Source: a virus. From it: a stretch of 64,000 nt of DNA. The translations under genes and the position numbers were made by a program. Every line of letters starts with the position of its first letter. Within the stretch, counting starts at the first letter, position 1. Positions 31,068 through 62,926 of this stretch are shown here, piece by piece. The stretch lies in IMG/VR virus record IMGVR_UViG_3300032053_012801; one strand, given 5' to 3'. Under the pieces are notes generated by a model. That model saw only the letters and a program-made list of their open reading frames with translations, ran no database searches and was not told where the DNA came from.

Positions 31068-31239
31068 TATCTACACCTTTCAAAAATTCTGTATAACATC
31101 GCGCAGAACAGCATCTGTGATTTGCTGGTATGTCTCCGTATACACGCGTCGATTCTTTGACATTGAATGATTTACTGCAGACTCTACAGCTTATGTTTTT
31201 AGCCATAGTATAATAGTCAATTAGAATAGCTATGAAAAA

Positions 31240-31311
31240 TGCCTCGAGCCAGATTTGAACTGGCGATAACGGTTTTAGAGACCGTCACTTTGACCGCTAA
31301 GTTATCGAGGC
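31240..31311 (-). tRNA. suppressor tRNA (anticodon CTA, reads UAG amber)
   Basis: Reverse complement reads GCCTCGA-TA-ACTT-AGCGGTCA-AAGT-G-ACGGT-CTCTAAA-ACCGT-TATC-GCCAG-TTCAAAT-CTGGC-TCGAGGC-A. This is a clean class I cloverleaf with anticodon 5'-CUA-3' at positions 34-36. Confidence 0.75.
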
Positions 31312-31318
31312 ATTTCCA

Positions 31319-35156: not shown

Positions 35157-35237
35157 GTTCATCCCAATAAAAAAAGTTTCAAACCTGCGCTGGACCGCTT
35201 CAGCTAAAGCAGCATACTTCATAAGTTTCGTCCCAAT

Positions 35238-35276
35238 AAAAAAGCTCCATTGACTTTCGCCAGTGGAGCTTTTTTA
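35238..35276. terminator. rho-independent terminator hairpin (bidirectional)
   Basis: aaaaaa-AGCTCCA-ttgactttcgcc-TGGAGCT-ttttt. It separates the minus-strand block from the plus-strand operon. Confidence 0.55.
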
Positions 35277-35613: not shown

Positions 35614-36294
35614 ATGGCAACTCCTGTTATTACTGGTCAAAGAGTTAGTCCGATTGTTTCAGGAAAAAACAAGACATTAGTAGTTCATTTGGTAGATCTA
35701 TTCACTGATGATCCTGATTTTCCTGATGGTAGTGGAAAAGATTGGGTGATTGAAGGTCAAGCTGGAGCTCATTATGCAGTGAATCAAGATTCAGGTATAG
35801 TAGAAGAATTTGACGTCATTCCTACAACTAGTTATGTTGGTTCATTATCCGTCGCTGTTAGAATTAGTAATGACGGTGGTTCAACATGGAGTGATTGGTT
35901 TGGTCTTAGTGTATCAGTTGTTGAGATGCCTGTTATTTCAAATCAGACTAGTTTTCCTAAGTTGTACATTGGTTCATATCTTACCATAGCTCTTAACAAT
36001 TTGATTGTTACTACTAGTAAGATATATCCTCAACAATTCACACTATTAGCTTCTACTGGTATAGGATACTCGATAATTTCATCAACCAGTACATCAGTGA
36101 AGATTTTAATTGAAGGTAGTTTGTCAACTACTTCACGATCAATACCTGTACGAGTGAATGATGGATCAATTTGGAGTGATGCTTACAATTATATCGTTAA
36201 TGTTGTTGCAAAACCTGCAACTGGCAGACCTGCAGCAATGGGAGTTAGTATAACTGCACCGTCACCGTTTGAGCAGCCTTTTAGAAGAGTGTAA
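35614..36294 (+). CDS. Ser/Thr-rich protein, first gene of the plus-strand operon (candidate glycosylation substrate or surface protein)
   Basis: 226 aa, about 30% Ser/Thr, with repeated S/T-x-S/T runs (ISSTSTSVKILIEGSLSTTSRS). No enzymatic motif. Confidence 0.45.
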   Translation: MATPVITGQRVSPIVSGKNKTLVVHLVDLFTDDPDFPDGSGKDWVIEGQAGAHYAVNQDSGIVEEFDVIPTTSYVGSLSVAVRISNDGGSTWSDWFGLSVSVVEMPVISNQTSFPKLYIGSYLTIALNNLIVTTSKIYPQQFTLLASTGIGYSIISSTSTSVKILIEGSLSTTSRSIPVRVNDGSIWSDAYNYIVNVVAKPATGRPAAMGVSITAPSPFEQPFRRV

Positions 36295-36361
36295 CTAATT
36301 CATAAATTTGAAAAAGCTGATGACATAGAATATGTTATCAGCTTTTTTTTTGATCTCTTAG

Positions 36362-37414
36362 ATGAAAATTATGATACCGAAAAAAGTACTAATTGGTAAT
36401 GATCCTTGGAGTACTGATTTACTAGATTTCATTAAATCTGGTCCTCATTATTTGACCGCGCAGCAATGGCAAGAAAATATTGACATACCTTTAGAATCTA
36501 CTTTCTATTACAAATGGTTAATGTCAATGTTTATAGCTGACAATGTTGTGTGGGGCGGAATATTGAAAAATGAAGATGACATTGTGAAGCAATGTGCTAG
36601 ATATAGAGCTATGTATTTGATAGCTCCTAAGTGGCAAGAGGAATATAGCATATTGCAAACTGATACGAATTCTGCGCACTATTATGGATATAGACCTGTG
36701 AAAGTTCGCTGTAATGGCGCCATTGACATTTGGGATGGCATGCATAGAATAAGCTTATTGACTTTCAAGCGGTTGCCTATAGAAGTTACAATATGTGAGC
36801 GATTACCGGGATGGGCTGAACTATACAAAGAAATTGAAGATTTGTATCCTAACAAAATGCTATATCAGCCGATACCGCATCCTGACTTTAGTGACTGGGC
36901 CACAGCAATTGACGGTAACAAAGAGCAAATTATCTGCGACTTCTTCAAACAAAACAAGATTGACAGCGTATTAGATTTGGGTACTTGTCACGGTTTCACT
37001 CTTTACAAACTAAAAGATCTGATTAAGCATGGTATAGGCATTGAATCTGACAAAATTAGATTTCAAATAGCAAGTATACTGCTAAACAAAATAGGGTTTT
37101 CTTGTCATAATACAAATGCAATAGACTACATTGAGACTAGTGAAAGTGCAGATTGCACATTGTGTCTAGCAATACTGCATCATATATCGAGATTATGTCC
37201 TATAGAAGTGTTTGAAAAATTCTTGCAAACAGTAGCACAAAAGACTAAGTTTATAATCTATACATTACCAAATCCGAATGAAGATCAGTTCTCATGGATG
37301 TATGAATCTAAAAGAGACAATTTTGACGAGTACATATTGCAATTGACAGGCTTCAAAACTAGAGAAGTAATAGTTAGTTCTAGAGAAATTAGAATATTAG
37401 AAAAGAACCTATAA
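36362..37414 (+). CDS. ParB/Srx-like N-terminal domain fused to class I SAM-dependent methyltransferase
   Basis: IWDGMHRISLL (ParB-like DGxHR) in the N-terminal half. VLDLGTCHGFTL (MTase motif I) in the C-terminal half. Confidence 0.45.
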   Translation: MKIMIPKKVLIGNDPWSTDLLDFIKSGPHYLTAQQWQENIDIPLESTFYYKWLMSMFIADNVVWGGILKNEDDIVKQCARYRAMYLIAPKWQEEYSILQTDTNSAHYYGYRPVKVRCNGAIDIWDGMHRISLLTFKRLPIEVTICERLPGWAELYKEIEDLYPNKMLYQPIPHPDFSDWATAIDGNKEQIICDFFKQNKIDSVLDLGTCHGFTLYKLKDLIKHGIGIESDKIRFQIASILLNKIGFSCHNTNAIDYIETSESADCTLCLAILHHISRLCPIEVFEKFLQTVAQKTKFIIYTLPNPNEDQFSWMYESKRDNFDEYILQLTGFKTREVIVSSREIRILEKNL

Positions 37415-38226
37415 TGTACGGCGTAACATACGATCAAGAAAATAGCACATTAAGTCTTGACAAACATGATTGTGGTTTGTTATCTAATGCTAGCGTGACA
37501 TTTAAGAGTCTACTATCGATACACAAAAATGCGTCAAGACTTGTGAAAATATTATGGCCATATACGTCAGCTTGGAACAAGCCTGACAGATTGAGTCGAA
37601 ATGTTTATGATCTATATTTTACGACAGTTAACAGTGATATTAAGACAGGACAAGACATTTATTTTAATGCAATGATTGGTGATTGTAATAAGTTTGATTT
37701 TAGTGTACTAAAACCAATTAGAGATACATATTTCAATTTGTCTAGTGAAGTAATAGTTAAACAAGAATCATTTATTCAAAAGTACAGTATAGATTTTGAT
37801 CACACTATTGCAATTCTTTATAGAGGTACTGATAAAATTCTTGAAGTGCCAAGAGTGCATCCAAAGTATTATTTGAAACCAATCAGTCCGATTAAGGACA
37901 TTTCAAATTATAGGGTACTTATACAGACAGATCAACAACAGGCATTAGACTATTTCAAACACGAGTTACCTAATTCGTTTCACATTGAAGAAATGCCGTT
38001 GACAAAAACAGATCAAGTGATGCATAATTTACAACGTGATACAAAAATGAGTAATTACGATTTGGGTGTCAATTATTTGGCTGCGATTGCTATTTTGAGT
38101 AAGTGTAAGTATGTAGTTTATGATACTAACAATGCAGGCTTATGGATATGTATTTTACGAGGTGACATTAATAACACGTGTCAAATACATGCAAGCGTTA
38201 ACACAATGAATAGATTTGAGTACTAA
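37414..38226 (+). CDS. hypothetical protein (operon member, translationally coupled)
   Basis: 270-aa ORF with ATGA start/stop overlap with the upstream gene. Confidence 0.4.
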   Translation: MYGVTYDQENSTLSLDKHDCGLLSNASVTFKSLLSIHKNASRLVKILWPYTSAWNKPDRLSRNVYDLYFTTVNSDIKTGQDIYFNAMIGDCNKFDFSVLKPIRDTYFNLSSEVIVKQESFIQKYSIDFDHTIAILYRGTDKILEVPRVHPKYYLKPISPIKDISNYRVLIQTDQQQALDYFKHELPNSFHIEEMPLTKTDQVMHNLQRDTKMSNYDLGVNYLAAIAILSKCKYVVYDTNNAGLWICILRGDINNTCQIHASVNTMNRFEY

Positions 38227-38928
38227 ATGTGTAAAGAGCTGTACTTAGATTTGCTGAAGCGATCGTTGCTTGACATAATATATGAAGAAGAGACGACTCA
38301 TACAACTAATGGTACGTATTGGCCTAAGCGAGCGTTCACTATGATAGGCCGTAAACGACTTGACAATATACAACATTGTGTCGAAAGTGTTATAGCAAAT
38401 GATGTGCAAGGTGATCTAATTGAAACCGGTGTGTGGCGTGGTGGTGCTGTAATTTTTATGCAAGGTATTTTGAAAGCATACAATATTACAGATCGAAAAG
38501 TGTTTGTAGCTGATTCTTTTCAAGGTTTGCCTGCGCCTAATACAGAAAAGTATCCAATTGACAAGAATAGTACTATGCATACCATTGACTATTTAAGAGT
38601 TGATGTTGATCAAGTAAAGCATAATTTTGAAAAGTATGCATTACTAGACACTAATGTAGTATTTCTAAAGGGTTGGTTCAAAGATACTCTTACAAATAGT
38701 ATGATAGATAAAATTGCTGTATTGAGATTAGATGGTGACTTATATGAGTCAACTTGGGATTCATTAACTGCGTTATATCATAAAGTCCAGAAAAATGGGT
38801 TCGTTATTATTGATGATTATAACTGGGTAAATTGCAGAACAGCTGTTGAAGATTTTAGAAAACTACATAATATTCACGATCCGATCGTCATTATTGACGC
38901 TTGGGGAGCATACTGGAAAAAATCATGA
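38227..38928 (+). CDS. TylF/MycF-family (macrocin-O-methyltransferase-like) sugar O-methyltransferase
   Basis: LIETGVWRGGAVIFM...LRLDGDLYEST is the diagnostic TylF/MycF pattern. Confidence 0.6.
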   Translation: MCKELYLDLLKRSLLDIIYEEETTHTTNGTYWPKRAFTMIGRKRLDNIQHCVESVIANDVQGDLIETGVWRGGAVIFMQGILKAYNITDRKVFVADSFQGLPAPNTEKYPIDKNSTMHTIDYLRVDVDQVKHNFEKYALLDTNVVFLKGWFKDTLTNSMIDKIAVLRLDGDLYESTWDSLTALYHKVQKNGFVIIDDYNWVNCRTAVEDFRKLHNIHDPIVIIDAWGAYWKKS

Positions 38929-39503
38929 ATAGAACAGACATCATCAATTTCTACACAAGCAAAAAACAAAATTGTCGTTATCTTGAAATAGGCATTGGAA
39001 ATGCATCTGCCAATTTCAACAAAATTAGTGCTGCAGTAAAAGATGCAGTTGATCCTGTAAATCCCTGTAATCATCTTATGAGTTCTGATGCATTTTTCTC
39101 AAGTAATACTAGTCAATACGATATCATTTTTATAGACGGCGATCACAAAGCAGCTCAAGTGATCAAAGACATTTCAAATTCACTAAAATGTTTGAGTACT
39201 GACGGAATTATACTTTTACATGATTGTAATCCTGAATTAGAAGTTCATCAAACAGAGAACATTACTGTGTCTCATTGGAACGGATCAGTTTGGAAAGCAA
39301 TATTGTTTTATAGAATGTTTGATCCTAATTTGTCAATCTGTACTATTGATGTAGATGAAGGCATTGGAATTATAAAGCCAGGACAGCAAGAATTATTTGA
39401 ATGTGCTGAAACAATGTTTGATTTTGCTTTTCTTTGTAAGTATAGAAAGCAAATACTCAATTTACTAACTGTGCAAGAGTGGCAATTGATGGAGCAACGA
39501 TGA
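38901..39503 (+). CDS. class I SAM-dependent methyltransferase (CmcI/O-MTase-like)
   Basis: YLEIGIGNASANF (motif I) and IIFIDGDHK (motif II-like). Confidence 0.5.
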   Translation: MGSILEKIMNRTDIINFYTSKKQNCRYLEIGIGNASANFNKISAAVKDAVDPVNPCNHLMSSDAFFSSNTSQYDIIFIDGDHKAAQVIKDISNSLKCLSTDGIILLHDCNPELEVHQTENITVSHWNGSVWKAILFYRMFDPNLSICTIDVDEGIGIIKPGQQELFECAETMFDFAFLCKYRKQILNLLTVQEWQLMEQR

Positions 39504-40438
39504 TCTATACTATGTCTTATTGGCATTGGTATAAGTACTGTAGTATTGAAGTCAAAAATATTACAGCAGATGTTGAACCAAGTAAAGATGATTGGTTTGT
39601 AGTATTTCAACCTTATGATGCTGCTCGCAGAGAACTAGTATCAGCAGTCATTGACAGATTTGACTATTCAAAACGAGTATTGATTCATTACGAGGGTCGT
39701 TATCGTCAGCCTCATGGATTTAGACTAAGATATCAGCAAAAGTTTGGAAGAATCTATACTTATAATTCGACTGATGTTGATGGTGACACTGTTAAATATA
39801 TGCCGATACCGATGTGGATTACTGAAGATGAATGTTGTCCAGTCAATAACCGATCAAAATTCATTGGTACTGTTATAACCAACTATTTTCGTGATGGTGA
39901 GCCAAGAAACACTATAATTCGCAAGTTCAAAGATTTGGGTATGGATGTTTATGGAAGTTCAGATAAACCAGTACCATTAGAAATTAAGAAAGATTCTAGT
40001 GATGCTTGCGACAAAAACTTACCGCGATATTCTGCTAAAGTGAAACTGCTATCAGACTATACGTTTGCTTTTGCTATAGAAAGTCAATTAGATTTGGGTC
40101 ACTTGACTGAAAAACCGTTCGATTTGATAGCAGCTGGTTGTATACCTGTTTATTTAGGGCCAAAAGATGCGTCAACATTTATTCCTAAAGAGTGCTACGT
40201 TGATTACAGAGATTTCTGGTCTGAAGCTGATCTAATGAAATATCTTAAAAGCATGTCGCGACAAAAAATTCAAGAGTATCAGCAATCAATTGCAAAACAT
40301 CAAAAAGTCTTAGTTGGTATGAGAACTTTTGAGTCATGCATGAGATTTCTATGTAAAGACTTAGGATTTGACTGTCAGTCACATTATCACGATCAATTAT
40401 TAGAACTGTCAAATATACTTGCAACAAGGACAAAATAA
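39479..40438 (+). CDS. GT10-like glycosyltransferase (alpha-1,3-fucosyltransferase-like)
   Basis: FAFAIESQLDLGHLTEKPFDLIAAGCIPVYLGP resembles the GT10 AFENS...TEK...G.VPVV motif block. Confidence 0.45.
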   Translation: MAIDGATMIYTMSYWHWYKYCSIEVKNITADVEPSKDDWFVVFQPYDAARRELVSAVIDRFDYSKRVLIHYEGRYRQPHGFRLRYQQKFGRIYTYNSTDVDGDTVKYMPIPMWITEDECCPVNNRSKFIGTVITNYFRDGEPRNTIIRKFKDLGMDVYGSSDKPVPLEIKKDSSDACDKNLPRYSAKVKLLSDYTFAFAIESQLDLGHLTEKPFDLIAAGCIPVYLGPKDASTFIPKECYVDYRDFWSEADLMKYLKSMSRQKIQEYQQSIAKHQKVLVGMRTFESCMRFLCKDLGFDCQSHYHDQLLELSNILATRTK

Positions 40439-40968
40439 TGAAGTTACATTTAGGTTGCGGCAAACGATATATCCCTGGCTATACGCACATTGATGTTATA
40501 GAATACCCTCATATTGATATAGTGAATAGTGTTGATCGTCTACCAATGATTGAAGATGAATCATGTGATGTAGTTTATAGTTGTCATGTATTAGAGCACT
40601 TTCACAAAAAAGTCATTATAGATGTTCTTCATGAATGGTTAAGAGTGCTAAAAGTAAATGGTACATTGAGAATATCTGTGCCAGATATGCAAAGTCTACT
40701 TAAAGTATATGAGAAAACAGATGATATTTCATTAATACTAGGCCCTATATTTGGTAGGTGCAATTACTTGTACAATTTTCACTATACAGGATTTGACTTT
40801 AAGTCTTTGAAACATGTACTTGAATTAGCAGGTGCAAAAGATATTAGACGTTATGATTGGAGACTAACAGAGCATGCAGATGTTGATGACTACAGTCAAG
40901 CATATATTCCACAAGATAAAATAAATGGAACTCTTATTAGCTTAAATGTAGAAGCGACAAAAGTATGA
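40438..40968 (+). CDS. class I SAM-dependent methyltransferase (Methyltransf_11-like)
   Basis: HLGCGKRYIPGYTHID...SCHVLEHF. Confidence 0.5.
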   Translation: MKLHLGCGKRYIPGYTHIDVIEYPHIDIVNSVDRLPMIEDESCDVVYSCHVLEHFHKKVIIDVLHEWLRVLKVNGTLRISVPDMQSLLKVYEKTDDISLILGPIFGRCNYLYNFHYTGFDFKSLKHVLELAGAKDIRRYDWRLTEHADVDDYSQAYIPQDKINGTLISLNVEATKV

Positions 40969-43900
40969 GCGTGTTTTTATCTGACTTAACAGTTTTTGTC
41001 ATAAGTAGCGGTCATAATCCTTGCTATGACGCATGCTTGCAGTCATTAAACTCTCAAACAGTTTCATTCAAAGTCGAGATTATCAAAAACGTTCATCCAA
41101 TGTCAAGAGCTTTTCAGTGCATGATAGATTCTTGCAAGACTCGATACTATATTGAAATTGATGAAGATATGGTCATGAATGCAAACGGTATTGAAACCTT
41201 ACACAAGTATGCTGTTGAATCTGCACCAATGACAGCTATGATTGCTTGTAAGTTGATTGATGTACATTTGAATTTTGAAATTTATGGTGTCAAGATTTAC
41301 AAGCACGACATACTTAAGAGATATCCATACGACTTGTCCTCAATGTCGTGCGAAGTTGAACAAATGGATAGAATGAAAAATGACAAATATGAAATTACAT
41401 TAATGACTAATGTAGTTGGCCAGCATGCACCATATTGGTCTAATGAAGGAATATTTGATAGATATCGTAATTTACTTGACAAATTCAAACAGTTCAAATA
41501 TATCTGGATGAGTGACCTACCTGTAAAGTTATGGTCAATGTTGAAAGCTGAACCAACTGAACAGAATTTATATGCTTTACTTGGTGCATATACAAGTCTG
41601 ATTACAGACGCTGTTCAAGTTGGTGAGAAAGACTTTAGAAACAGAAATACATCGTTTGAAACAATGAGAAGTTTTATGAATCCACCTGTTAGTGCAAACC
41701 TGTATCTAACATCAAAATGTAATTTCAACTGCAGATTTTGCTATCGTAATTCGCAATCAATTGAACAGTCGATTGACATGACACTAAAAAATGTCAGTGA
41801 TCTGTTAATCAAACATCCATCAATTAGAGGCGTTTGTTGTGCTGGCTACGGAGAACCTTTTTTATGTGATAGTCTTTTTGACATCATATCATTTCTAAAA
41901 TCAAGAAACAAAGTTGTTGGACTAATAACAAACGGATCACTAATAGTTGAAAAAATCAATAGCCTATTAGCAAACAGACCAGACTATATATCTATAAGCT
42001 TAAACGCGTCAAATGCAAAGATGCATAATGAAATAAACAAATCATTGATATTTAATACTGTCTTACAAGGAATAGGACTCTGCGTAAGTAATGGTTTACC
42101 CACGTATTGTTCCTACGTATGCACAAAAAGTAATCTACGATATATTCCTGAATTTTTGACGTTAGTGAACTCTTTAGGTGTAAAGACTGTGCACTTATTA
42201 AATCTGTTACCGCACTTAGCAAGCGATTATAATGACGAGTCGTTTTGGCAAGAAGTGTTAACATATGATGACAAGCATAAAATTGATGCATTACAAGATC
42301 TGCCCGAAGCTAATTTGATTAAGGTATTTCCGACATTAATAAACCGTAATGAAGTTCGTTGCAATTGTCAAATACCTTGGACTACAATAGGAATAAACGG
42401 CAATGGTAGTGTAACATTTTGCGGATCAGTTTATGCACCAAATAGAGCTAATGGATCACTTAAGAATTTTGAAAATGTTTGGTTAAATGATAGTGCTAGA
42501 AAACTAAGAGACAGTTTATGTGACGTTAATAAGATGACAGACACATGCAAAATGTGTTTCAGAAATTGGGATGAATATAAGCCACTAACAAAACAAATAG
42601 TAACACAGTCTAAACCAGTTCCTAAAAAGCTTAGAATTTGCAAAATAATTGACCAATTTGGTTGGGCATACTATTTTGTAGCAAAAGAACAACAACTGTA
42701 TTCTTCGCATGATATCACATACAAACGATTAATCGATGTCACTGACATAGATGCAGACATAGTGTACATTCATGCACCAAATATTGATCATGCTAAAATC
42801 AACAGTCTAGTTTCAGTATTAAAACAAAAAGGCATCAAAGTTATTGGTGGTTATGGTGGAGAATCAAAACTAAAATATGACACTGACCCAGATCTTATAG
42901 TGTCAATATCTATGAGACATCTGGACTGTTTGAACAACATGTATCCTAATAAGTCTGTAGCGTTTCTACCAGAATCAATTGATACCAACTTCTTTACTGC
43001 AGCCGTGAAAGATGACAATAACTTTATAGTTGGTTGGGCCGGTTGTTTGCGTGATGTAAAGCGACCACATTTACTAAATAAACTAAAATTCAATGTTATT
43101 AAGAAAAGTGACTGGGGCAAGCAGTTTTTCTCTGATGGTAGATCATTAAATGACATGAAGTTATTTTATCACTCAATTGATGTACTAGTATTGACAAGTA
43201 TTAGCGAGTGTATGCCAAGAGTAGTATTAGAGGCCATGTCTTGTGGATTGCCTGTAGTTTCAACAAGGGTTGGTTGTATAGGAATGTTGTTAGATAAAGA
43301 ATGGATCGTAAGTACATTGCCTGAAGAAAATGTTATTTCAGAAATGAACAATCGATTGTCATTACTTAGTAATAGTAAGTCACTGCGACAAGAAGTAGGT
43401 AAGAGAAATAGACAGTATATTTTGAAGTTTTTTAGTTGGGCCGCTAATCAAAGTTTATGGGATAAAGCGTTTGAATTAATTATGCAAAACAAATTCAAAG
43501 ACATAAAAAATCTTGGCGATGAATTCATACAGTCATTACCAAATTCAAATGAATTAACATTCGACAACTTAGAAGTACAAACTGAGCAAACTACTTTTTC
43601 AGAATTAATTCAATGTGAACTAGCAAAACCAGTAACTAAACCGCAAATACAAATTGAACATGAACCGTTGAAATTGCAACCCATATCTAACATAGCAAAA
43701 ATCGAATGTGTTCCTGACATAGCAAAAGTTGAATGTGCTGATGACATAGCAAAAGTCGAATGCGCTCCTGTGATATCTAGATTAGTAAAACCATTATTCA
43801 TATCTTACTACACAAAAAATACAGGCTATGAAAACGAATATAAGAAGTTGGAAGCTTCATTAAGGCGATTCAATTTAGATTATGAAATTGTCGGTATTAA

Positions 43901-44351
43901 TTCACAAGGAAGTTGGTTCAATAACTGTTTCTATCGTACAACATTTGTCAAAGACATGCTAAATAAGCATAACCGACCTGTAGTATGGGTAGATTGTGAT
44001 GCCATAATACAGCAAGATCCGCAACTTCTATCTACATTAAATGAGTTTGATTTCGCATTTCATCCAAGAATTAAATCAAATGGTAGTACTGAACTTCTTG
44101 GTGGCACTATGTATTTCAACTGTACTATCGGTGCACTAAAATTGTTAGCTAAATGGACTGAATTAGTAAATGCAGATAGAACGAAATACAGACTCGATCA
44201 ATCTTATTTGCATGAGGCAGTCAGCACATTACATTCATTGAAAGTATTTCATTTGCCATCCACTTATTGCCAAATATTTGACTTAATGAAAGATGCTGGC
44301 AAACCTGTTATAGAGCATTTTCAAGCATCAAGAAAATACAAAAATGAATAG
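40965..44351 (+). CDS. 1128-aa multidomain enzyme: GT2-like N-terminal domain + radical SAM/SPASM core + GT4-like domain + 9-aa tandem-repeat linker + C-terminal nucleotide-sugar-transferase-like domain
   Basis: The N-terminus reads FVISSGHNPCYDACLQSLNSQT (GT-A/GT2-like). Around 250-330 it reads YLTSKCNFNCRFCYRN (CxxxCxxC), GYGEPF and ITNGS. Around 465-540 it reads C.C...C(x5)C...C..C (SPASM-like twin-cluster Cys). Around 740-790 it reads VLEAMSCGLPVVSTRVGC (GT4 E-x7-E region). Around 905-930 it reads IAKIECVPDIAKVECADDIAKVECAP. The C-terminus reads VWVDCDAII (DxD-like). Confidence 0.6.
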   Translation: MSVFLSDLTVFVISSGHNPCYDACLQSLNSQTVSFKVEIIKNVHPMSRAFQCMIDSCKTRYYIEIDEDMVMNANGIETLHKYAVESAPMTAMIACKLIDVHLNFEIYGVKIYKHDILKRYPYDLSSMSCEVEQMDRMKNDKYEITLMTNVVGQHAPYWSNEGIFDRYRNLLDKFKQFKYIWMSDLPVKLWSMLKAEPTEQNLYALLGAYTSLITDAVQVGEKDFRNRNTSFETMRSFMNPPVSANLYLTSKCNFNCRFCYRNSQSIEQSIDMTLKNVSDLLIKHPSIRGVCCAGYGEPFLCDSLFDIISFLKSRNKVVGLITNGSLIVEKINSLLANRPDYISISLNASNAKMHNEINKSLIFNTVLQGIGLCVSNGLPTYCSYVCTKSNLRYIPEFLTLVNSLGVKTVHLLNLLPHLASDYNDESFWQEVLTYDDKHKIDALQDLPEANLIKVFPTLINRNEVRCNCQIPWTTIGINGNGSVTFCGSVYAPNRANGSLKNFENVWLNDSARKLRDSLCDVNKMTDTCKMCFRNWDEYKPLTKQIVTQSKPVPKKLRICKIIDQFGWAYYFVAKEQQLYSSHDITYKRLIDVTDIDADIVYIHAPNIDHAKINSLVSVLKQKGIKVIGGYGGESKLKYDTDPDLIVSISMRHLDCLNNMYPNKSVAFLPESIDTNFFTAAVKDDNNFIVGWAGCLRDVKRPHLLNKLKFNVIKKSDWGKQFFSDGRSLNDMKLFYHSIDVLVLTSISECMPRVVLEAMSCGLPVVSTRVGCIGMLLDKEWIVSTLPEENVISEMNNRLSLLSNSKSLRQEVGKRNRQYILKFFSWAANQSLWDKAFELIMQNKFKDIKNLGDEFIQSLPNSNELTFDNLEVQTEQTTFSELIQCELAKPVTKPQIQIEHEPLKLQPISNIAKIECVPDIAKVECADDIAKVECAPVISRLVKPLFISYYTKNTGYENEYKKLEASLRRFNLDYEIVGINSQGSWFNNCFYRTTFVKDMLNKHNRPVVWVDCDAIIQQDPQLLSTLNEFDFAFHPRIKSNGSTELLGGTMYFNCTIGALKLLAKWTELVNADRTKYRLDQSYLHEAVSTLHSLKVFHLPSTYCQIFDLMKDAGKPVIEHFQASRKYKNE
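43691..43771 (+). repeat. 3 x 27-bp in-frame tandem repeat inside the 1128-aa ORF (encodes the DIAKVEC(A/V)P linker)
   Basis: catagcaaaaatcgaatgtgttcctga / catagcaaaagttgaatgtgctgatga / catagcaaaagtcgaatgcgctcctgt. Confidence 0.7.
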
Positions 44352-44976
44352 ATTAGTAATCATCGGCGGCGGATCAAGCATAAAAGGATTTGACTTAGCT
44401 AAGCTCAATCATGAGTTCACATTTGGTTTGAATTTCGTTTGCCACTATTACGATCCCACAGCACTAATCTGGATTGATCGAGATTTCTACTCTAAACATC
44501 AGCAAGTAATAAACAACCTCAAATGCGTTAAAATCACAAGAGACAGTCGTGATGTGCCAGCAGACGTATTCAAGCTATTATCAGCAAAAGAATATCATGG
44601 ACTAGACGGGTTGTCAAAAGGACTGTATCATCCGTATTTAGTTGGACTATTCTCATTATCGCTAGGTATAGCTTTGAAATTCAAAGAGATTTATCTGCTT
44701 GGATTTGATGGACGATTTGTTAATGATAAGAGTCACTTTCATGACATTGTACATCGCGGTACACAAGATGAAATGGTCTATATACGAGGCAATGCTAGAT
44801 TTGATGTCTATAAAGATTGTCCATCTAAAATCTACAATGTTTCACTAGATTCAGCGATTCATGCTTTCCCAAAGATTTCATACGAACAATTTTGTAAGAT
44901 AATTGATAACAATGAGATATACACTAGTCAAGAGGCAAAAAAATGGTTAGCGTCAAATCTTCGACAACAGACCTGA
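44344..44976 (+). CDS. DUF115/Maf-like protein (possible glycosyl- or nonulosonate-transferase accessory), last gene of the operon
   Basis: N-terminal MNRLVIIGGGSSIKGFDLAKL is a nucleotide-binding-like G-rich loop, as in the DUF115/MptE-like fold. The assignment is weak. Confidence 0.3.
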   Translation: MNRLVIIGGGSSIKGFDLAKLNHEFTFGLNFVCHYYDPTALIWIDRDFYSKHQQVINNLKCVKITRDSRDVPADVFKLLSAKEYHGLDGLSKGLYHPYLVGLFSLSLGIALKFKEIYLLGFDGRFVNDKSHFHDIVHRGTQDEMVYIRGNARFDVYKDCPSKIYNVSLDSAIHAFPKISYEQFCKIIDNNEIYTSQEAKKWLASNLRQQT

Positions 44977-45220: not shown

Positions 45221-45275
45221 GAACAGGGCCGGCGAGATTCCATCTCAAGTGGATTTTTGCCGGCCCTTTCTTTGT
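45221..45275. terminator. bidirectional rho-independent terminator between the convergent plus operon and the minus block
   Basis: aaagaac-AGGGCCGGC-gagattccatctcaagtggatttttgcc-GGCCCT-ttctttg. Confidence 0.5.
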
Positions 45276-45980
45276 CTAGTGAATTGCGTTCTTGTATACT
45301 GCTGGAAGATTGTCTTCGAGGCCACACTTATTACATGACATATTAAGTGTGTTTTGTAGCAGCTCATCGAATGAAGAATCAACAGTGCCGATCTTATAAC
45401 AAAATCTAGATTCACCAGTAACGACATTGCCATGAACATCAATTGATGGTGAACAAATTTTACCCTTTGTTCTCAAAAGCATTACTGCCTTTTGAAAGTC
45501 TCTCAGCGTTTTGCAAAAGCTTCTGAAGTTAAAACATAGTGGCGATGTGCGACCTGCAATCTCACTCAAATTTCTTGCTCGTCCAATGGGACTAAGAAGG
45601 TTGATTTTATCAGCAAATAGTACTCGAGGATGATCGATAGGTTCTACTTTCAGTGGATAATATTTTGGATCATTATAGACTTGAATAAGGACATTTGATG
45701 CTAGAATCATTTCTCGAGTCTTAAGATCAGACCAAAATAGTCCATTACTTAGAAGAACGGCATTCCAGTCTTTCAATTCATTCAAAAACTGTTGAATCTG
45801 CGGATGATCAGTCGGTTCACCGCCGCTTACCAGTATAATACGTTGACCAGAATATACACGCTCAATGAAATCAAGTGCTTTCTTGAAAGTTTCAAGAGAC
45901 ATGTGTTCGCCAACAGATTTTGCATCTTCCATGCAATGACTGCAGCCCATTTGGCATTGAGTTGTAATCTTCACTAGCAT
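45276..45980 (-). CDS. radical SAM protein (small, single-cluster; organic-radical-activase/QueE-like size)
   Basis: CQMGCSHC (CxxxCxxC) and ILVSGGEPT. 234 aa. Confidence 0.55.
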   Translation of the reverse strand: MLVKITTQCQMGCSHCMEDAKSVGEHMSLETFKKALDFIERVYSGQRIILVSGGEPTDHPQIQQFLNELKDWNAVLLSNGLFWSDLKTREMILASNVLIQVYNDPKYYPLKVEPIDHPRVLFADKINLLSPIGRARNLSEIAGRTSPLCFNFRSFCKTLRDFQKAVMLLRTKGKICSPSIDVHGNVVTGESRFCYKIGTVDSSFDELLQNTLNMSCNKCGLEDNLPAVYKNAIH

Positions 45981-48645: not shown

Positions 48646-48962
48646 GTCATCCTCCTTATATCATCTCGCCATGGACAAGCTGAACTCCAAGTACAAACTG
48701 AATCAATCAGATATCTACAAGAATCTTTACACGTGCAGCACGGAGCTCGTTTTGTTATACCTTTGATTATAGTTAATCCTGTCTTTTGCCATAGATCTCG
48801 AGGGTCGATTGCTTTTTGTTTGCGAACTTGAAATGTAGACTGAGCATGTTCAATAGCTTTTTTAACTTGTTGTGAAGTCATACAGAAATACGTCGCACAG
48901 TACACCATCAAATCTTGACGACTAGTCCAATAGTATACTGTTTTTCGATTATCATTTATCAT
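48642..48962 (-). CDS. hypothetical Cys-rich protein
   Basis: 106-aa ORF. Confidence 0.35.
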   Translation of the reverse strand: MINDNRKTVYYWTSRQDLMVYCATYFCMTSQQVKKAIEHAQSTFQVRKQKAIDPRDLWQKTGLTIIKGITKRAPCCTCKDSCRYLIDSVCTWSSACPWRDDIRRMT

Positions 48963-50635
48963 TATGCCTCCAGTAAATCATTCTTTGTCAACCACGCTCT
49001 ACGACCAATCCACAATCCAAATGTCTTAGAATACTGAATCTGACTTTTTTCATGAGCATCTGACCCAATAGCAATTTTGATGCCCATATCCTTACATCTT
49101 CGTATGACATCTTCATCAGCATCTAGTCTATCTGGTTGACAATTAAACTCTATGGCGACGTTATGATTCCTGCACTCTTGCAGAATTGCTTCAACATTCA
49201 TGACATGACCAGGTCGTTGATTTATGAGTCGACCTGTTAGATGACCTATGATGTGGACTTTACCAGTGCGAATTGCTTTGCAATACATTTCTGTGACATC
49301 TTGCTTTGTATGAACGTGAATTGATGCAATTACAATGTCAAGTTGGTCGAGAATTTCATCTGAGTAATCGAGTGAACCATCAGATTTAATGTTAACTTCA
49401 CTCCCCATTAATATCTTAATGGTTGGATATTTCATCCTCAAGACTTCTATCTCGCCAATCTTCCGTTTAATATCGACTGCCAGTACTTTCGTAGAAATTA
49501 CTTGTGAATGATCTGTTATTGCTATGCCCTTTAGCCCTTGCCTTATCGCAGCTTGCACCATTTCTTCAATCGTTGATTTGCCGTCAGACCATGTTGAATG
49601 AGTATGAAAATCACACTCAATATCATCGGCCTTCAATAAATTCACTGCTGGTTGATCAATGCGATACTTTCCAAACTGAGAGACATCATCACGATGTTCT
49701 GGTGGTATGAAATTGAATCCAAGGGAATTGTAGATGCTAGTCTCAGTACCATCATCAAGACGGTCACCAGTTCGTTCGTCACCGAATCGTCTGTAAAGAC
49801 CGTACTGTGATAGAATTAATCCCTTTGATTTTGCAATTCTACGAAGCTCTTCATTATGATCTGCAGAACCTGTAAGATGCATAACACCAGACTCAAAAGT
49901 GTCTGCTTCAAAGATGTAGCAATCGATGCGAATACCCTTGACCCAAACTGATGCTTTTTTCTTACCAATATCTATAACTTTATCAACTATTGGTAAGGTT
50001 GCAAATCGCTGTAAAAAATCGCTATCGCTCGATACAACTGCAAAATCAATATCACCAATGGTTGACTTTGACCGTCTGAAAGAACCACAAAATTCAATCC
50101 TGTCACAAAACTCTCTCAGTTCACTATGAATTTGTACTATTAATTCCAAAGCTTCATCAAGACGAATTCTACCACGAGTTGTCTCAAGATATTCTATGCC
50201 TTGTTTGATGTTTTCGATCGTTTTGTCTTTGAAAACCTGTGCAAGTTTGCCATTCTCAATAGCAACTTTCAACTCAGCAATCATAGATATCCCGAGTGTC
50301 TCGTAGATTTTCAATGCCTTTTTCTCGCCAATTCCTTCAATTCTAAGCAACTCTTCGACTTTCTGAGAAGCGTTCAAGCACGCCTGATTATCTACGATAA
50401 ATTGAACTTTGCCAGTAGAGAGGAATTCTAGTATACTGTTCGCAATCTTAGGACCAATACCTTTGGTGGTCAAAAGATCCAATTCTGAGACCGGCGTAGG
50501 TAGGTTAGAAATGAATTTAGCAGCTTTTCTATAGGCACCGATTGAAAACTTGTTATCATTCTGGTGCTGCTTTATTTCAGCAATGTCGTAGAGAATCTTT
50601 GCAACGTCTTGGTTTATCATATTAGTAGTAATCAT
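48962..50635 (-). CDS. polX: family X DNA polymerase (Pol beta-like) with C-terminal PHP phosphoesterase domain
   Basis: N-terminal HhH motif (KGIGPKIANSILE) and nucleotidyltransferase GSFRR...DIDF. The C-terminal PHP domain reads DFHTHSTWSDG...HVH...IIGH. Confidence 0.8.
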   Translation of the reverse strand: MITTNMINQDVAKILYDIAEIKQHQNDNKFSIGAYRKAAKFISNLPTPVSELDLLTTKGIGPKIANSILEFLSTGKVQFIVDNQACLNASQKVEELLRIEGIGEKKALKIYETLGISMIAELKVAIENGKLAQVFKDKTIENIKQGIEYLETTRGRIRLDEALELIVQIHSELREFCDRIEFCGSFRRSKSTIGDIDFAVVSSDSDFLQRFATLPIVDKVIDIGKKKASVWVKGIRIDCYIFEADTFESGVMHLTGSADHNEELRRIAKSKGLILSQYGLYRRFGDERTGDRLDDGTETSIYNSLGFNFIPPEHRDDVSQFGKYRIDQPAVNLLKADDIECDFHTHSTWSDGKSTIEEMVQAAIRQGLKGIAITDHSQVISTKVLAVDIKRKIGEIEVLRMKYPTIKILMGSEVNIKSDGSLDYSDEILDQLDIVIASIHVHTKQDVTEMYCKAIRTGKVHIIGHLTGRLINQRPGHVMNVEAILQECRNHNVAIEFNCQPDRLDADEDVIRRCKDMGIKIAIGSDAHEKSQIQYSKTFGLWIGRRAWLTKNDLLEA

Positions 50636-62135: not shown

Positions 62136-62926
62136 GCATTGTCCTCCTCTAGTATTTTTTTAGCAAGAAGCTTACCGTTTTCATTAATGTTATGAGGGCA
62201 ATCAGTCCATGAACACCATTTACAATTATCACTTACTACTTTCTCAAAACAATCTGCTTCTATTGCATCGAACATCTTGTCAACTTTTTTCATCACAGCG
62301 TAATAATCTTCATCTGTAACTTTCACATCAACTATTCTATTCTCTTTCTTTGACGGATGCACAAACCTCACGCAATCTTCAATCATATCAAATTGCTTAG
62401 CAAGAGCCCAACTGTAAAGTATCGCCTGCAATCTATACTTCTCTGCACTGTGTTTGCCTGTTTTCCAATCCAAAATGTAGATCTTACCATTTACTTCAAT
62501 AAGTAAATCCATGTACCCGTGAACATTAATCAAAAACCTACTATTACTATACGGTTGCTTAAATTCAAGCTCTGACCCTATAGACTCATGCATCCAATCG
62601 TTCTCTTTTGCCATAGCGACCCAGTTTTTTATCAGCGTAAAACCTGAGCCTCTTGCATATTTCAATTCTATTTTTTCAGCCTTTTGCACTTTGACTTCAA
62701 TATCAAAAAATTTCTCCCAATTTTTGAACAGATCATATACTCTAAACGTTTTTTGTTCGTAAAATGACTCTAGTAATTTATGAAATGCTTGACCAAGCAC
62801 TAATGGAGCACTTGGCACTTTAAGAGTCGGGCGCTTAAGCACTTTATCTTGCTTAAACGCCCAAGGACACGTGCAAAAGTAATTTATTGTGGATGCTGAT
62901 AAATTGAAATCAAGCTTTTTCAACAT
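62132..62926 (-). CDS. PD-(D/E)XK nuclease, Cas4/RecB-like with Fe-S Cys cluster
   Basis: N-terminal C(TCPWAF) plus C-terminal CKWCSWTDCPH (3-4 Cys). Core D..ELE..K-like catalytic residues (GYMDLLIEVNGKIYILDWKTGK). Confidence 0.6.
   Translation of the reverse strand: MLKKLDFNLSASTINYFCTCPWAFKQDKVLKRPTLKVPSAPLVLGQAFHKLLESFYEQKTFRVYDLFKNWEKFFDIEVKVQKAEKIELKYARGSGFTLIKNWVAMAKENDWMHESIGSELEFKQPYSNSRFLINVHGYMDLLIEVNGKIYILDWKTGKHSAEKYRLQAILYSWALAKQFDMIEDCVRFVHPSKKENRIVDVKVTDEDYYAVMKKVDKMFDAIEADCFEKVVSDNCKWCSWTDCPHNINENGKLLAKKILEEDNA

Follow-up and report, generated by a model that had tools for sequence, protein, structure and literature searches.

Organisation of the plus-strand cassette

The window, i.e. 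the whole stretch of 64,000 nt that was analysed, contains nine ORFs on the plus strand between positions 35614 and 44976. They form its only multi-gene plus-strand block and are bordered by strong hairpins on both sides, as the first-pass annotation had proposed. The sign of the GC skew changes across the block and its GC content is 0.32-0.34, with higher values in the flanks. The features are as follows:

35237..35276, bidirectional: upstream hairpin with A-run, 16-bp stem and T-run (RNAfold -22.8 kcal/mol)
35614..36294, plus: g1, 226-aa all-beta protein (ORF, composition)
36310..36348, plus: intrinsic terminator/attenuator directly 3' of g1 (18-bp stem, T9)
36362..37414, plus: g2, N-terminal DGxHR-motif domain and WbdD-type class I methyltransferase domain (profile match, motifs)
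37414..38226, plus: g3, 270 aa, from an uncharacterised but widespread family whose members share invariant YRGTDK and QTDQ motifs
38227..38928, plus: g4, TylF/MycF-family sugar O-methyltransferase (PF05711, 2.7e-91, 305.9 bits)
38925..39503, plus: g5, class I methyltransferase (Methyltransf_24, PF13578, 1.3e-9)
39500..40438, plus: g6, GT10-like (fucosyltransferase family) glycosyltransferase (PF00852, GT10 C-terminal domain, 7.2e-13, 49 bits against a cut-off of 23.9)
40438..40968, plus: g7, class I methyltransferase (Methyltransf_11, PF08241, 4.3e-8; phrog_6636)
40965..44351, plus: g8, 1128 aa, GT-A / radical SAM with Twitch-like auxiliary domain / GT4 / GT-A (domain searches, homologues)
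44344..44976, plus: g9, GT42/Maf (DUF115, PF01973)-like protein (phrog_4603 at 1e-11)
45226..45267, bidirectional: downstream GC-rich hairpin with flanking A/T runs (RNAfold -36.5 kcal/mol)

The upstream hairpin insulates the operon from a minus-strand stretch with tRNA and HNH genes, and the downstream one is common to the operon and a convergent minus-strand radical SAM ORF (45276-45980). Translational coupling, earlier ascribed to all nine genes, applies to g2-g9 only, where neighbours abut or overlap by 0-8 nt, while g1 lies outside, separated from g2 by a 67-nt gap containing the hairpin and T9. These overlaps presuppose ATGA starts for g5 (ATG 38925, overlapping the g4 stop) and g6 (ATG 39500), which are the probable starts although the program-made ORFs open at TTG 38901 and GTG 39479; the g5 homologue in the closest relative, L001, is called at 192 aa.

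Four SAM-dependent methyltransferases (one TylF, one WbdD-type and two generic class I enzymes) are encoded in the operon, together with five recognisable glycosyltransferase (GT) modules (GT2-like GT-A, GT4, DxD GT-A, GT10 and GT42/Maf-like) and a radical SAM domain in which one auxiliary-cluster site is conserved. Genes for nucleotide-sugar synthesis, flippase, polymerase and transporter are absent from it, and no transmembrane or strongly hydrophobic segment was found in any of its proteins. The operon is an insulated cassette for soluble proteins in a large, tRNA-rich phage. With its 30 tRNAs and its replication and repair genes, the phage resembles lytic jumbo phages more than temperate ones.

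The fusion protein g8 and its family

Domain mapping of g8 gave the following plus-strand features:

40965..41669, plus: residues 1-235, GT2-like GT-A (invariant D66-x-D68; AF2 and Foldseek)
41670..42584, plus: residues 236-540, radical SAM core and auxiliary region (PF04055, PF13186, profile against PDB)
42627..43544, plus: residues 555-860, GT4 (GT-B) (PF00534 6.3e-12; PF13692 2.3e-11; E748-x7-E756)
43690..43770, plus: 3 x 27-bp tandem repeat, encoding DIAKVECAx three times (TRF score 120)
43782..44348, plus: residues 940-1128, DxD GT-A-like domain (D1010-C-D1012; weakly PF03407-like)

The domain list agrees with the one first given, down to the repeats and the C-terminal DxD, except that the SPASM domain is truncated and scores below its cut-off. 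DxD motifs lie at residues 66-68 and 1010-1012. The N-terminal domain has no Pfam match of its own, the homologue P0010 being above the PF00535 cut-off (24.9 versus 23.3 bits), and its AF2 model (pLDDT 91.6) matched GT2 enzymes in the PDB when run through Foldseek (E 5e-9, prob 1.0), with SpsA, TarP, WrtF and 6p61 (GT2-type GT-A) among the matches. The radical SAM core contains C252-x3-C256-x2-C259 and G294-Y-G-E-P298 and matches PF04055 strongly (1.6e-17, 64.6 bits, cut-off 29.5), whereas the match to SPASM PF13186 (20.1 bits) stays under the cut-off of 21.5. The canonical SPASM motif is CX2CX5CX3C, and in the g8 family it has shrunk to CX2C. In the auxiliary region, C468-x12-G-x4-C486 ... 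C528-x2-C531, just four cysteines (C468, C486, C528 and C531) do not vary within the family, and with only these conserved the region fits a truncated, Twitch-like SPASM with one auxiliary cluster; the two clusters expected earlier are unlikely. The GT4 domain is well above its threshold (PF00534, 45.8 versus 26.4 bits) and the tandem repeat lies in the variable linker that follows, which is gapped and unconserved in homologues. For the C-terminal domain the PF03407 match is sub-threshold (5.8e-4, 20.3 bits, cut-off 22) and a PDB sequence search gave no match, while tblastn found the domain in uncultured phage LR756500 and in Cronobacter phage JK004.

The same four-domain chain was found in six homologues at 57-86% identity on independent contigs (JGI, ENA, NCBI, Logan), and because of these g8 is accepted as a genuine fusion. 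The parts do occur as separate genes in relatives, the GT4 domain as an adjacent gene in L009 and the C-terminal domain as an adjacent 187-aa ORF in L008, as would be expected if the 1128-aa ORF were an assembly chimera. Such a chimera, or a fortuitous set of Cys motifs, is nevertheless effectively refuted, its probability being close to nil, by the six homologues, by a Pfam radical SAM score of twice the cut-off and by the invariance, in 21 didomain proteins at 29-44% identity, of CX3CX2C, GGEP and the four cysteines of the auxiliary region. Five g8 homologues moreover carry inteins inserted at the SAM-binding motif, and taken together the homologues, the invariant catalytic motifs and the inteins argue for a real fusion under selection.

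The exact four-domain form is limited to one clade, and the conserved unit is the didomain of GT-A and radical SAM, present in ~80 of 167 related proteins classified. It was found in ~25 IMG/VR contigs of up to 388 kb, in only 4 MAG contigs among genome bins and in no cultured phage. It defines a hitherto undescribed enzyme family, widespread, almost confined to phages and large in uncultivated ones. The claim that the architecture had not been described agrees with our literature search, which gave no description of such a GT/radical SAM fusion, but g8 is no one-off. Architectures AB, ABx and ABBC lack the radical SAM domain, and because in such related proteins this GT-A is joined straight to GT4, the radical SAM domain looks like an optional tailoring insert. 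Bacterial homologues of the g8 GT-A domain are found in giant chromosomal GT4/GT2/methyltransferase/TPR synthases.

Accessory genes and comparison of loci

The first-pass annotation described g2 as a ParB-like-methyltransferase fusion. The methyltransferase part stands, as a 17-sequence profile matched the methyltransferase domain of WbdD (E 6e-23, runner-up methyltransferase 3e-11), with the motifs LYQPIxHPDF, LDxGxCxG and FHH, and up to 14 of the 17 family members matched Pfam methyltransferase families. Pfam ParBc was matched neither by g2 nor by its family, and the ParB-like label derives only from the conserved DGxHR (ParB/Srx-like) motif. WbdD is an O-antigen chain terminator which caps polyprenol-linked O9a polymannose (PMC3482155).

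The remaining assignments were borne out. No Pfam domain covers the g3 family (386 homologues), and even a 16-sequence profile gave no PDB or Pfam match. At the family level g9 is DUF115/GT42-like: PF01973 was matched by seven of eight members of its family, whose 8-sequence profile aligned nearly full length with Cst-II (1.5e-6) and also matched both Cst-I and an LOS sialyltransferase, making g9 a putative nonulosonic-acid transferase.

When 30 loci were compared, the most constant neighbours of the GT-A/radical SAM gene were a GT4 and the g2 family (the latter beside it in 18 loci), both flanking the module in most cases. The conserved evolutionary core consists of the didomain, a GT4 and the WbdD-type methyltransferase, and the recurring neighbours, the separate adjacent genes in L008 and L009 and the permuted domain order in P0013 suggest that the parts are functionally linked. 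The P0013 locus also encodes a GT29, an epimerase, further GTs and an SLH-domain protein. In L093 and L094, two diverged contigs of jumbo phages, the methyltransferase/GT10/g3 block turns up again with its order changed, and L097 has most of it, with a short partial g3 match but no TylF; g4 is missing in L001.

The DGxHR domain could bind DNA, so that the GTs and methyltransferases would place a glycan on modified phage bases with help from the radical SAM domain. A PHROG 'DNA methyltransferase' label for g5 and the phage GT-A and GT-B enzymes that build glycans on 5hmC DNA (bioRxiv 10.1101/2023.12.21.572611) are consistent with this, yet the same work mentions neither radical SAM enzymes nor methylated sugars. 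The scanned ORFs of the window include no hydroxymethylase, TET/5mYOX or base-modifying gene, the retrieved loci offer only a thymidylate-synthase-family gene ~8 kb away in L008, and TylF, GT10, GT42/Maf and WbdD-type enzymes belong to families that act on glycans or glycoconjugates, making DNA hypermodification highly improbable.

Proposed function and acceptor

The domain identities support the earlier proposal of a glycan-building and tailoring operon around a giant GT/radical SAM fusion. Our preferred reading, held with slightly less than even confidence, is that the cassette uses nucleotide sugars of the host to make a glycan that is methylated and capped, that a sugar is tailored by radical chemistry once it has been transferred, and that a phage-encoded protein is the acceptor. 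During infection the cytoplasm would be the site where the enzymes build up this oligo- or polysaccharide. The GT-A domain of g8 would attach a common sugar, from which the fused radical SAM domain would take a hydrogen and so epimerise, oxidise or deoxygenate it in place, modelled on the radical chemistry of BtrN, NeoN, HygY and AprD4 on aminoglycoside sugars; NeoN, HygY and BtrN are cited in PMC10991966 as Twitch and related radical SAM sugar epimerases/dehydrogenases. The GT4, the C-terminal GT-A of g8, GT10 and g9 would extend the chain, the O-methyltransferases decorate it and g2 cap its non-reducing end. Such an in-place step would give the phage an unusual residue without a nucleotide-sugar pathway of its own. 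The order glycosylate, modify, glycosylate, proposed earlier, is plausible and gains some support from the GT-A-GT4 fusions lacking radical SAM, its chemistry being putative.

Glycan context throughout (the bacterial GT-A homologues, the P0013 locus) argues for this reading; against it count the radical SAM subgroup matches (MoaA, PqqE, SkfB, viperin, BtrN and others), too generic to point to a substrate, the sub-threshold C-terminal GT-A and ParB-like assignments and the fact that peptides are the more frequent substrates of SPASM/Twitch enzymes. Possible acceptors are g1, another phage protein or a host lipid-linked glycan, the most likely being phage-encoded, either a highly expressed g1 in this clade or a virion protein, and glycosylated particles would result.

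The protein g1 is Ser/Thr-rich as first noted (21.7% versus 9-14% in the other operon genes) and contains an internal duplication (E 8e-4), both halves ending NDGxxWSD...VVxxP, but no Cys, signal peptide or transmembrane segment. Its AF2 model (pLDDT 36.9) is too low for structure, and Pfam, PHROG and NCBIfam searches detected no family. Only four close homologues appeared in the protein search. L001, L003, L007 and L004, the last with two copies, have a homologue adjoining the fusion; in L004 and L007 it keeps this place although the methyltransferase block sits elsewhere or is missing. L008 has one short homologue. A hairpin and T-run of differing sequence follows g1 at the equivalent position in L001, L007 and L004, and is absent in L003, which has an extra overlapping gene there. 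This conserved position and the constant place beside the fusion speak for g1 as a possible acceptor; it may also be a decoration protein. Its lack of a detectable family or usable model speaks against an acceptor role, as does the failure to detect it in most of the more distant module loci, and the earlier naming of g1 as likely acceptor is not established.

Radical action could instead be on protein, as in RiPP maturases and anSME, the SPASM/Twitch domain then targeting g1 or, where a phage has no g1, some other protein. It would epimerise a residue, introduce a cross-link or create an attachment site for the fused GTs to glycosylate. The radical SAM profile matches MoaA (2e-18), BlsE, PqqE, SkfB, CteB, SuiB, BtrN, anSME and DesII in the PDB and aligns through the auxiliary domain with the peptide-modifying PqqE, CteB, SuiB and SkfB, and the NCBIfam matches, all generic to the SPASM/Twitch group, include StsB and WgkB. 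A small gene next to the fusion throughout its clade, followed by a leaky terminator and enzymes, also resembles precursor-plus-maturase operons. Against this, no RRE/PqqD-like domain was detected with Pfam or NCBIfam, g1 is a folded beta protein rather than a short peptide, its lack of Cys excludes thioether chemistry, it is undetected in most didomain loci and the constant partners of the domain are GTs and a glycan-capping-type methyltransferase. Protein-directed chemistry is accordingly judged improbable.

The preferred reading of a phage-encoded acceptor must also be weighed against remodelling of the host envelope, which we consider rather unlikely. The cassette would then extend, radically tailor, methylate and cap a polyprenol-linked glycan (O-antigen, capsule or teichoic type) at the inner membrane face, as in an ABC-transporter-dependent pathway, altering the infected-cell surface, for example to block superinfection or to keep progeny from adsorbing to debris. 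It offers no account of g1 and its dedicated terminator, and it sits poorly with a lytic phage and with operon proteins free of membrane segments. With the exception of L007, neither the window nor the retrieved loci show a transporter, flippase, ligase or priming enzyme close to the cassette. WbdD and the GT4/GT2 multi-domain synthases, the closest bacterial analogues, act on polyprenol-linked glycans, and by analogy with these a lipid-linked acceptor would be favoured, as it would by the specifically WbdD-like g2 domain, by the SLH-domain protein and many GTs at the P0013 locus, and by the exception itself, a Bac_transf phosphoglycosyl transferase (priming enzyme) 4.6 kb from the fusion in L007.

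Anatomy of the fusion protein and its relatives

When the 1128-aa protein encoded by g8 (40965-44351, plus strand) was mapped against Pfam, radical SAM and GT4 domains were found above their cut-offs, and we have little doubt that g8 is a genuine GT/radical SAM/GT/GT enzyme, the last GT domain being a putative one. The N-terminal region (residues 1-235) gave no Pfam match even at E 10, and since a sequence profile found no match in the PDB either, a fold search was needed for this part. An AF2 model built with 15 homologues (pLDDT 91.6) was placed by Foldseek among GT2-type GT-A enzymes (probability 1.0, E down to 5e-9, TM about 0.5), namely 6p61, SpsA, TarP, RmlT, WrtF and the hyaluronan and cellulose synthases, which together with the invariant D66-x-D68 bears out the GT-A-like domain first proposed here. 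The GT2 family PF00535 does not match the window domain while the homologue P0010 passes it (24.9 bits against 23.3), so that the domain is GT2-like by fold and forms a divergent family of its own.

Residues 236-540 form the radical SAM (rSAM) domain (PF04055, 64.6 bits against a cut-off of 29.5). The core is complete, as the first-pass annotation had it, with both the cluster motif C252-x3-C256-x2-C259 and the SAM-binding motif G294-Y-G-E-P298 invariant in 21 family members. Against the PDB the rSAM profile matches MoaA (2e-18) and also BlsE, PqqE, SkfB, CteB and SuiB, followed by viperins, NifB, BtrN, anSME and DesII. NCBIfam gave no specific subfamily; the similarities are generic to the SPASM/Twitch group and the best of them (tungsten-cofactor maturase, MoaA, StsB, viperin) lie far below the cut-offs, for which reason no function was transferred to the domain.

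The auxiliary region had been read as a SPASM domain with two clusters, a reading that did not hold. g8 has neither the canonical CX2CX5CX3C motif nor the last Cys, and of the seven-Cys pattern four conserved auxiliary Cys are left (C468-x12-G-x4-C486 and C528-x2-C531), which do not vary among 21 proteins of 29-44% identity. Two further residues, C466 and C519, are clade-specific and each is missing in three of nine close homologues. The SPASM profile PF13186 scores 20.1 bits in g8, below its cut-off of 21.5, and 21.9-24.9 in the homologues P0009-P0011. The conserved positions agree, at the sequence level, with the Twitch pattern of a Cys pair and a downstream CX2C, and the conservative reading is a single, putatively Twitch-like cluster. 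The spacing presumably resembles that of the Cys4 site of BtrN.

The GT4 domain (residues 555-860; PF00534, 45.8 bits against 26.4) carries the EX7E motif as E748-x7-E756 and matches BshA, MshA and PglA-type enzymes in the PDB, in keeping with the original assignment. The three 9-aa tandem repeats noticed earlier lie in the variable linker that follows:

43690-43770, plus strand, 3 x 27-bp repeat in the linker after the GT4 domain of g8

In the C-terminal domain (residues 940-1128) the reported DxD is present as D1010-C-D1012, invariant in seven homologues, but the family match PF03407 stays below its cut-off (20.3 bits against 22), and the domain profile gave no match among PDB sequences.

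The possibility that the open reading frame is an assembly chimera was ruled out by a metagenome search for the same architecture. Contigs from JGI, ENA, NCBI and Logan, independent of one another, yielded six proteins with the same four-domain chain (57-86% identity), and a seventh homologue (P0007) holds the first three domains. At the locus L008 the C-terminal domain is an adjoining ORF of its own (187 aa), at L009 the GT4 is a separate adjoining gene and in the homologue P0013 the GT4 is placed N-terminal of the GT-A+rSAM pair (the didomain). The split neighbouring genes and the permuted order show that the parts of the fusion are separable yet functionally linked modules.

When 1.84 billion cluster representatives were searched exhaustively with HMMER, 357 had E below 1e-30. 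The four window domains were used to classify 167 related proteins, consisting of the earlier matches and the best 150 representatives, and about 80 of these carry GT-A+rSAM.

Architectures among the 167 classified proteins (A, GT-A; R, rSAM; B, GT4; C, C-terminal DxD domain; x, other domain or insert)
GT-A+rSAM alone, about 530-570 aa: 47
Additional N-terminal domains, then GT-A+rSAM: 23, plus 1 xBAR
GT-A+rSAM interrupted by inserts, mostly inteins between C-I/L-C and GFGEP: 7, plus 1 AxRx
Four-domain form, in one clade only: 6
GT-A joined straight to GT4, without rSAM (AB, ABx): 11
ABBC: 1

The exact window architecture is thus rare and the didomain common, and the forms lacking rSAM (AB, ABx, ABBC) show that, behind a GT-A of this family, the rSAM domain is an optional insert. 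Inteins of LAGLIDADG or HNH type interrupt the stand-alone GT-A+rSAM homologues P0008-P0012 (e.g. L009:10001-12649), three in the SAM-binding motif, between C-I/L-C and GFGEP, and two beside CX3CX2C, positions that suggest strong constraint on the active site of the rSAM domain.

The cassette, its genes and their distribution

The nine ORFs g1-g9 at 35614-44976 are the only multi-gene plus-strand block in a window where nearly all genes lie on the minus strand, in agreement with the first-pass annotation, and across them the GC skew changes sign and GC falls to 0.32-0.34. Terminators had been proposed on both flanks and strong hairpins were indeed found there, together with a third inside the block:

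35237-35276, bidirectional, upstream hairpin with A/T runs, -22.8 kcal/mol
36310-36348, hairpin immediately 3' of g1, 18-bp stem followed by T9
45226-45267, bidirectional, downstream hairpin with A/T runs, -36.5 kcal/mol

The translational coupling described for all nine genes applies to g2-g9, which abut or overlap within 0-8 nt when ATGA starts are presumed at 38925 and 39500, but not to g1, which is uncoupled from g2 by the hairpin and T9 directly behind it and a gap of 67 nt. None of the cassette proteins has a transmembrane segment, and a nucleotide-sugar pathway, a transporter and a membrane anchor are all missing from the cassette.

The first gene, g1, is Ser/Thr-rich as described (21.7% Ser+Thr over 226 aa), lacks Cys, is internally duplicated as a tandem repeat and has neither a signal peptide nor a transmembrane segment. 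Its AF2 model is all-beta, with a pLDDT (36.9) too low for the model to be used. The second gene had been called a ParB-like-methyltransferase fusion. Its methyltransferase domain is real, whereas the ParB-like part of the 350-aa protein comes down to a ParB/Srx-like DGxHR motif N-terminal of it, in which G126, H128 and R129 are (nearly) invariant across 17 sequences and for which Pfam ParBc (PF02195) has no match in any of the 17 family members. Singly, g2 gives only weak methyltransferase matches, while the profile of the 17 sequences matches the methyltransferase domain of WbdD (residues 16-202) with E 6e-23 against 3e-11 for the second-best methyltransferase, a lead of twelve orders of magnitude, and the alignment includes the WbdD-specific motifs YQxIxxHP and FHH. 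Lacking the eukaryotic-like kinase domain and the C-terminal coiled coil, g2 is not a WbdD orthologue.

Pfam confirms much of the remainder as first assigned: g4 is a TylF/MycF-type sugar O-methyltransferase (PF05711, 305.9 bits against 23; 2.7e-91), g5 and g7 (MT24 and MT11) are class I methyltransferases and g6 holds the C-terminal catalytic domain of the GT10 fucosyltransferase family (PF00852, 49 bits against 23.9). The window protein of g9 has no Pfam match by itself, while PF01973 (DUF115/MptE-like, Maf family) matches seven of the eight members of its family (best 8.6e-5), and the profile of these eight sequences matches the GT42 enzyme Cst-II at 1.5e-6 over positions 1-176, almost its entire length, as well as Cst-I and an LOS sialyltransferase. 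With the match to PHROG phrog_4603, labelled 'alpha-2,3-sialyltransferase' (1e-11), this upholds the DUF115/Maf-like assignment. For g3 (37414-38226, plus strand) neither Pfam nor the PDB gave a match, also with a 16-sequence profile. Its family is widespread, numbers more than 386 proteins, members from a Pseudanabaena chromosome and marine metagenomes among them, and has YRGTDK and QTDQ as invariant motifs; it may be an unrecognised family of glycan-acting enzymes, and one idea is that YRGTDK is a candidate fucosyltransferase-type motif.

In species-representative genomes the full didomain was found in four of the best 80 loci, all of them MAG contigs. The other 76 carry the GT-A domain alone, many on long chromosomal contigs (Nitrospira, Planctomycetota, Acidobacteriota and others), and where examined this domain is part of multi-domain GT4/GT2/methyltransferase/TPR proteins that reach 2192 aa. 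IMG/VR holds about 25 viral contigs with the didomain, some of 203-388 kb. Among 50,697 phage records no cultured phage with the didomain was found, megablast with the cassette gave no match and tblastn with g8 gave only three weak single-domain matches. The didomain family looks large and almost phage-specific. An archaeal origin was considered for L004 (GCA_030650065.1, contig JAUSEY010000618.1), binned as 'Nitrosarchaeum sp.', and rejected, as the contig has the same phage gene set and its relatives encode sigma-70, NusG and trigger factor. The label, carried by the homologue P0006, is most likely a binning error and L004, with the same cassette, a mis-binned phage contig; it also holds genes for DnaB, a Cas4-like nuclease, trigger factor and TROVE/Ro60.

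Comparison of 30 loci showed GT4 and the g2 family to be the steadiest neighbours of the didomain, the latter present in 18 of the 30 and mostly adjoining the didomain gene. The block of g3, TylF, MT24, GT10, MT11 and g2 reappears beside it, reordered, in the diverged jumbo-phage contigs L093 and L094, and L097 keeps most of the methyltransferase/GT10 block without TylF. Several loci also have genes for NAD-dependent sugar epimerases/dehydratases and additional glycosyltransferases. The genes g1 and g9 and the C-terminal domain co-occur in a close clade formed by the window, L001, L003, L004, L007 and, partly, L008. In L007 and L004 the g1 homologues stand directly upstream of the fusion and are followed by a hairpin and T-run of unrelated sequence, the methyltransferase block being absent or on the opposite strand, and in L003 a 305-aa extra gene takes the place of the hairpin.

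Three side observations concern these neighbourhoods. A family of ~300 aa (L003:4477-5394; homologues in L092, L095, L101, L104 and L106) adjoins the GT-A+rSAM gene in six loci and lies between g1 and g2 in L003; it is not found in the window. TylF (38227-38928) is missing in L001, the closest relative (fusion 86% identical), and present in more distant ones, so methylation patterns probably differ between sister phages. In L007 a polyprenyl-phosphate sugar-1-phosphate transferase (Bac_transf, L007:17856-19232) is encoded 4.6 kb downstream of the fusion, which hints that some of these phages build lipid-linked glycans.

Related systems, proposed role and acceptor

The genes make this a phage glycan-assembly and tailoring cassette. 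With many transferases and methyltransferases but nothing for nucleotide-sugar synthesis, transport or membrane anchoring, it probably draws on host nucleotide sugars and works in the cytoplasm. The individual domains, in g8 as in the cassette, are all from known superfamilies. New are the covalent GT-A+rSAM unit, the fact that it is restricted to large uncultivated phages and the conserved partnership with GT4 and a WbdD-type methyltransferase; none of these appears in Pfam, NCBIfam or PHROG annotations, and a search of the accessible literature for GT-radical SAM fusions and jumbo-phage glycan cassettes found nothing relevant. One cyanophage paper mentioning radical SAM was set aside, as it concerns an unrelated 'antibiotic synthesis' annotation.

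The dehydratase AprD4 acts on sugar carbons of assembled glycosides and the decarboxylase BlsE is counted among the Twitch-type enzymes acting on glycosidically linked sugars. To our knowledge every cobalamin-free Twitch-type precedent from glycan chemistry works on a sugar that is already glycosidically bound, and we know of sugar-tailoring radical SAM enzymes only as free-standing enzymes of antibiotic pathways. For NeoN, HygY and BtrN, action on sugars already in glycosidic linkage is described (PMC10991966). The dehydrogenase BtrN, the epimerases NeoN and HygY, AprD4 and BlsE combine an rSAM core with a C-terminal region holding one Cys4 auxiliary site (C-x17-C...C-x2-C), an arrangement that g8 putatively shares, and the rSAM profile of g8 matches BtrN, BlsE and DesII, although its similarity to these enzymes is no nearer than to MoaA, PqqE and viperin. 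They are stand-alone proteins of about 250-450 aa from actinomycete or Bacillus antibiotic clusters, whereas the rSAM domain of g8 is phage-encoded, covalently placed behind a GT2-like domain and, in the window clade, also ahead of a GT4 and another, putative GT-A.

The action of the Twitch sugar enzymes on assembled glycosides is the role that we propose for the rSAM domain of g8. A common sugar would be transferred first and then edited, by epimerisation, oxidation or deoxygenation via hydrogen abstraction, and the radical step would be followed by chain extension, O-methylation and WbdD-like capping. The rSAM is an optional insert on this GT-A, the Twitch precedents act on glycosidically linked sugars, and transfer followed by editing is the most economical mechanism; the sugar-tailoring mechanism has an even chance of being correct. 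A bolder proposal, which we consider improbable, is that the didomain defines a new class of enzyme, found essentially only in large phages, in which sugar transfer is coupled to radical chemistry on one and the same growing chain. The outcome could be a sugar that has no nucleotide-activated donor, or else a glycan-glycan or glycan-protein bond of a non-canonical kind (C-C or ether). In both cases, if true, jumbo phages would have a methyl-capped glycan coat that is chemically unique and made entirely from ordinary host precursors.

SPASM peptide maturases (PqqE, CteB, SuiB, anSME) belong to the same rSAM subgroup as g8 and the alignment extends through the auxiliary domain. g8 differs from the maturases in lacking CX2CX5CX3C and the last Cys, in its four auxiliary Cys and in the absence of an RRE, and its partners are glycosyltransferases, those of the maturases peptides and proteases. 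A RiPP-like protein target of the rSAM is possible but poorly supported: no match to an RRE or PqqD was obtained, g1 with its 226 aa, modelled as all-beta, has no Cys to modify as such precursors would, and g1 was undetected in most didomain loci.

The acceptor is the weakest link of the interpretation. In O9a synthesis WbdD stops polymerisation by adding a phosphate and then a methyl group to the polymannose at its non-reducing end (PMC3482155). The O9a machinery of E. coli (the GT4 mannosyltransferases WbdA, WbdB and WbdC with WbdD) shares with the cassette soluble or peripheral multi-domain GT4-type synthases and a capping methyltransferase. In g2 the N-terminal DGxHR domain replaces the C-terminal kinase of WbdD and the coiled coil is absent, and the cassette, of phage origin, has no Wzm/Wzt transporter and adds a radical SAM domain, GT10, a GT42-like enzyme and three methyltransferases. 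The WbdD and O-antigen analogies, together with the priming enzyme of L007, favour a host polyprenol-linked glycan as acceptor. A phage protein, in the window clade g1 or a virion protein, is favoured in that the enzymes are soluble and the layout is that of an abundant product followed by an attenuator; g1 itself is a doubtful candidate. Glycosylation of DNA is unlikely because no base-hydroxymethylating genes were found in the ORF scan of the window.

Mycobacteriophages and giant viruses are known to encode glycosylation functions of their own. Virion O-glycosylation operons of mycobacteriophages were reportedly described by Freeman et al. in Cell Host Microbe in 2023, in which phage glycosyltransferases, sometimes with methyltransferases, are said to glycosylate phage proteins in the cytoplasm from host nucleotide sugars; we know of no radical SAM component in them. 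These operons involve other glycosyltransferase families and other hosts, and here the cassette sits among tRNA and early-type genes, not structural genes, and a target protein for the glycan is only a candidate. In comparison with the Maf flagellin glycosyltransferases and Cst-I/Cst-II, the g9 profile spans nearly the entire catalytic domain of Cst-II and matches 5mu5 weakly (E 0.2); g9 itself, with 210 aa, is a bare catalytic core without the substrate-binding domains of Maf, and genes for CMP-nonulosonate synthesis were not seen in the window.

A covalent GT/radical SAM unit implies a channelled 'transfer then radical edit' on a growing glycan, previously undescribed. If it works as proposed, it would be a new viral route to unusual glycans independent of nucleotide-sugar pathways of the phage's own, would bear on glycosylation of phage particles or host surfaces, receptor masking and immune recognition, and would offer a compact soluble enzyme set for glyco-engineering. 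The WbdD-type methyltransferase with DGxHR (g2) and the YRGTDK family (g3) are smaller uncharacterised targets.

Other genes of the window

The window, a portion of a large uncultivated phage, has 30 tRNA genes and encodes RtcB, an RNA ligase, a Thg1-like enzyme, an NAD-dependent DNA ligase, PolX, trigger factor, a Cas4-like nuclease and many homing endonucleases. Much of this forms a tRNA supply and repair island, in which the tRNA genes are interspersed with RtcB, the RNA ligase, the Thg1-like tRNA-His guanylyltransferase and several homing endonucleases of HNH, DUF559/NUMOD3 and endonuclease-I type. One amber-suppressor-like tRNA with a CUA anticodon, labelled 'Pyl' by ARAGORN, raised the question of stop-codon recoding, which was rejected: TAG terminates 14 of the 58 window ORFs of at least 120 aa, and TAG recoding is thus not indicated in the window. 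Individual loci are as follows:

1-35200, minus strand, tRNA supply and repair island (e.g. 27332-28495, 1547-2173 and 5714-6424)
31239-31312, minus strand, tRNA with CUA anticodon
26195-27088, minus strand, radical SAM ORF
45276-45980, minus strand, radical SAM ORF
48962-50635, minus strand, PolX-PHP polymerase
51502-52911, minus strand, Band7/flotillin protein
62910-63995, minus strand, homologue of trigger factor, truncated at the end of the window

The radical SAM ORF at 45276-45980 is convergent with the cassette and shares its downstream terminator. The Pfam/NCBIfam match of this 234-aa product is confined to the N-terminal portion of the rSAM core, and the ORF is missing in L003 and L004 and 87% conserved in L001/L002.
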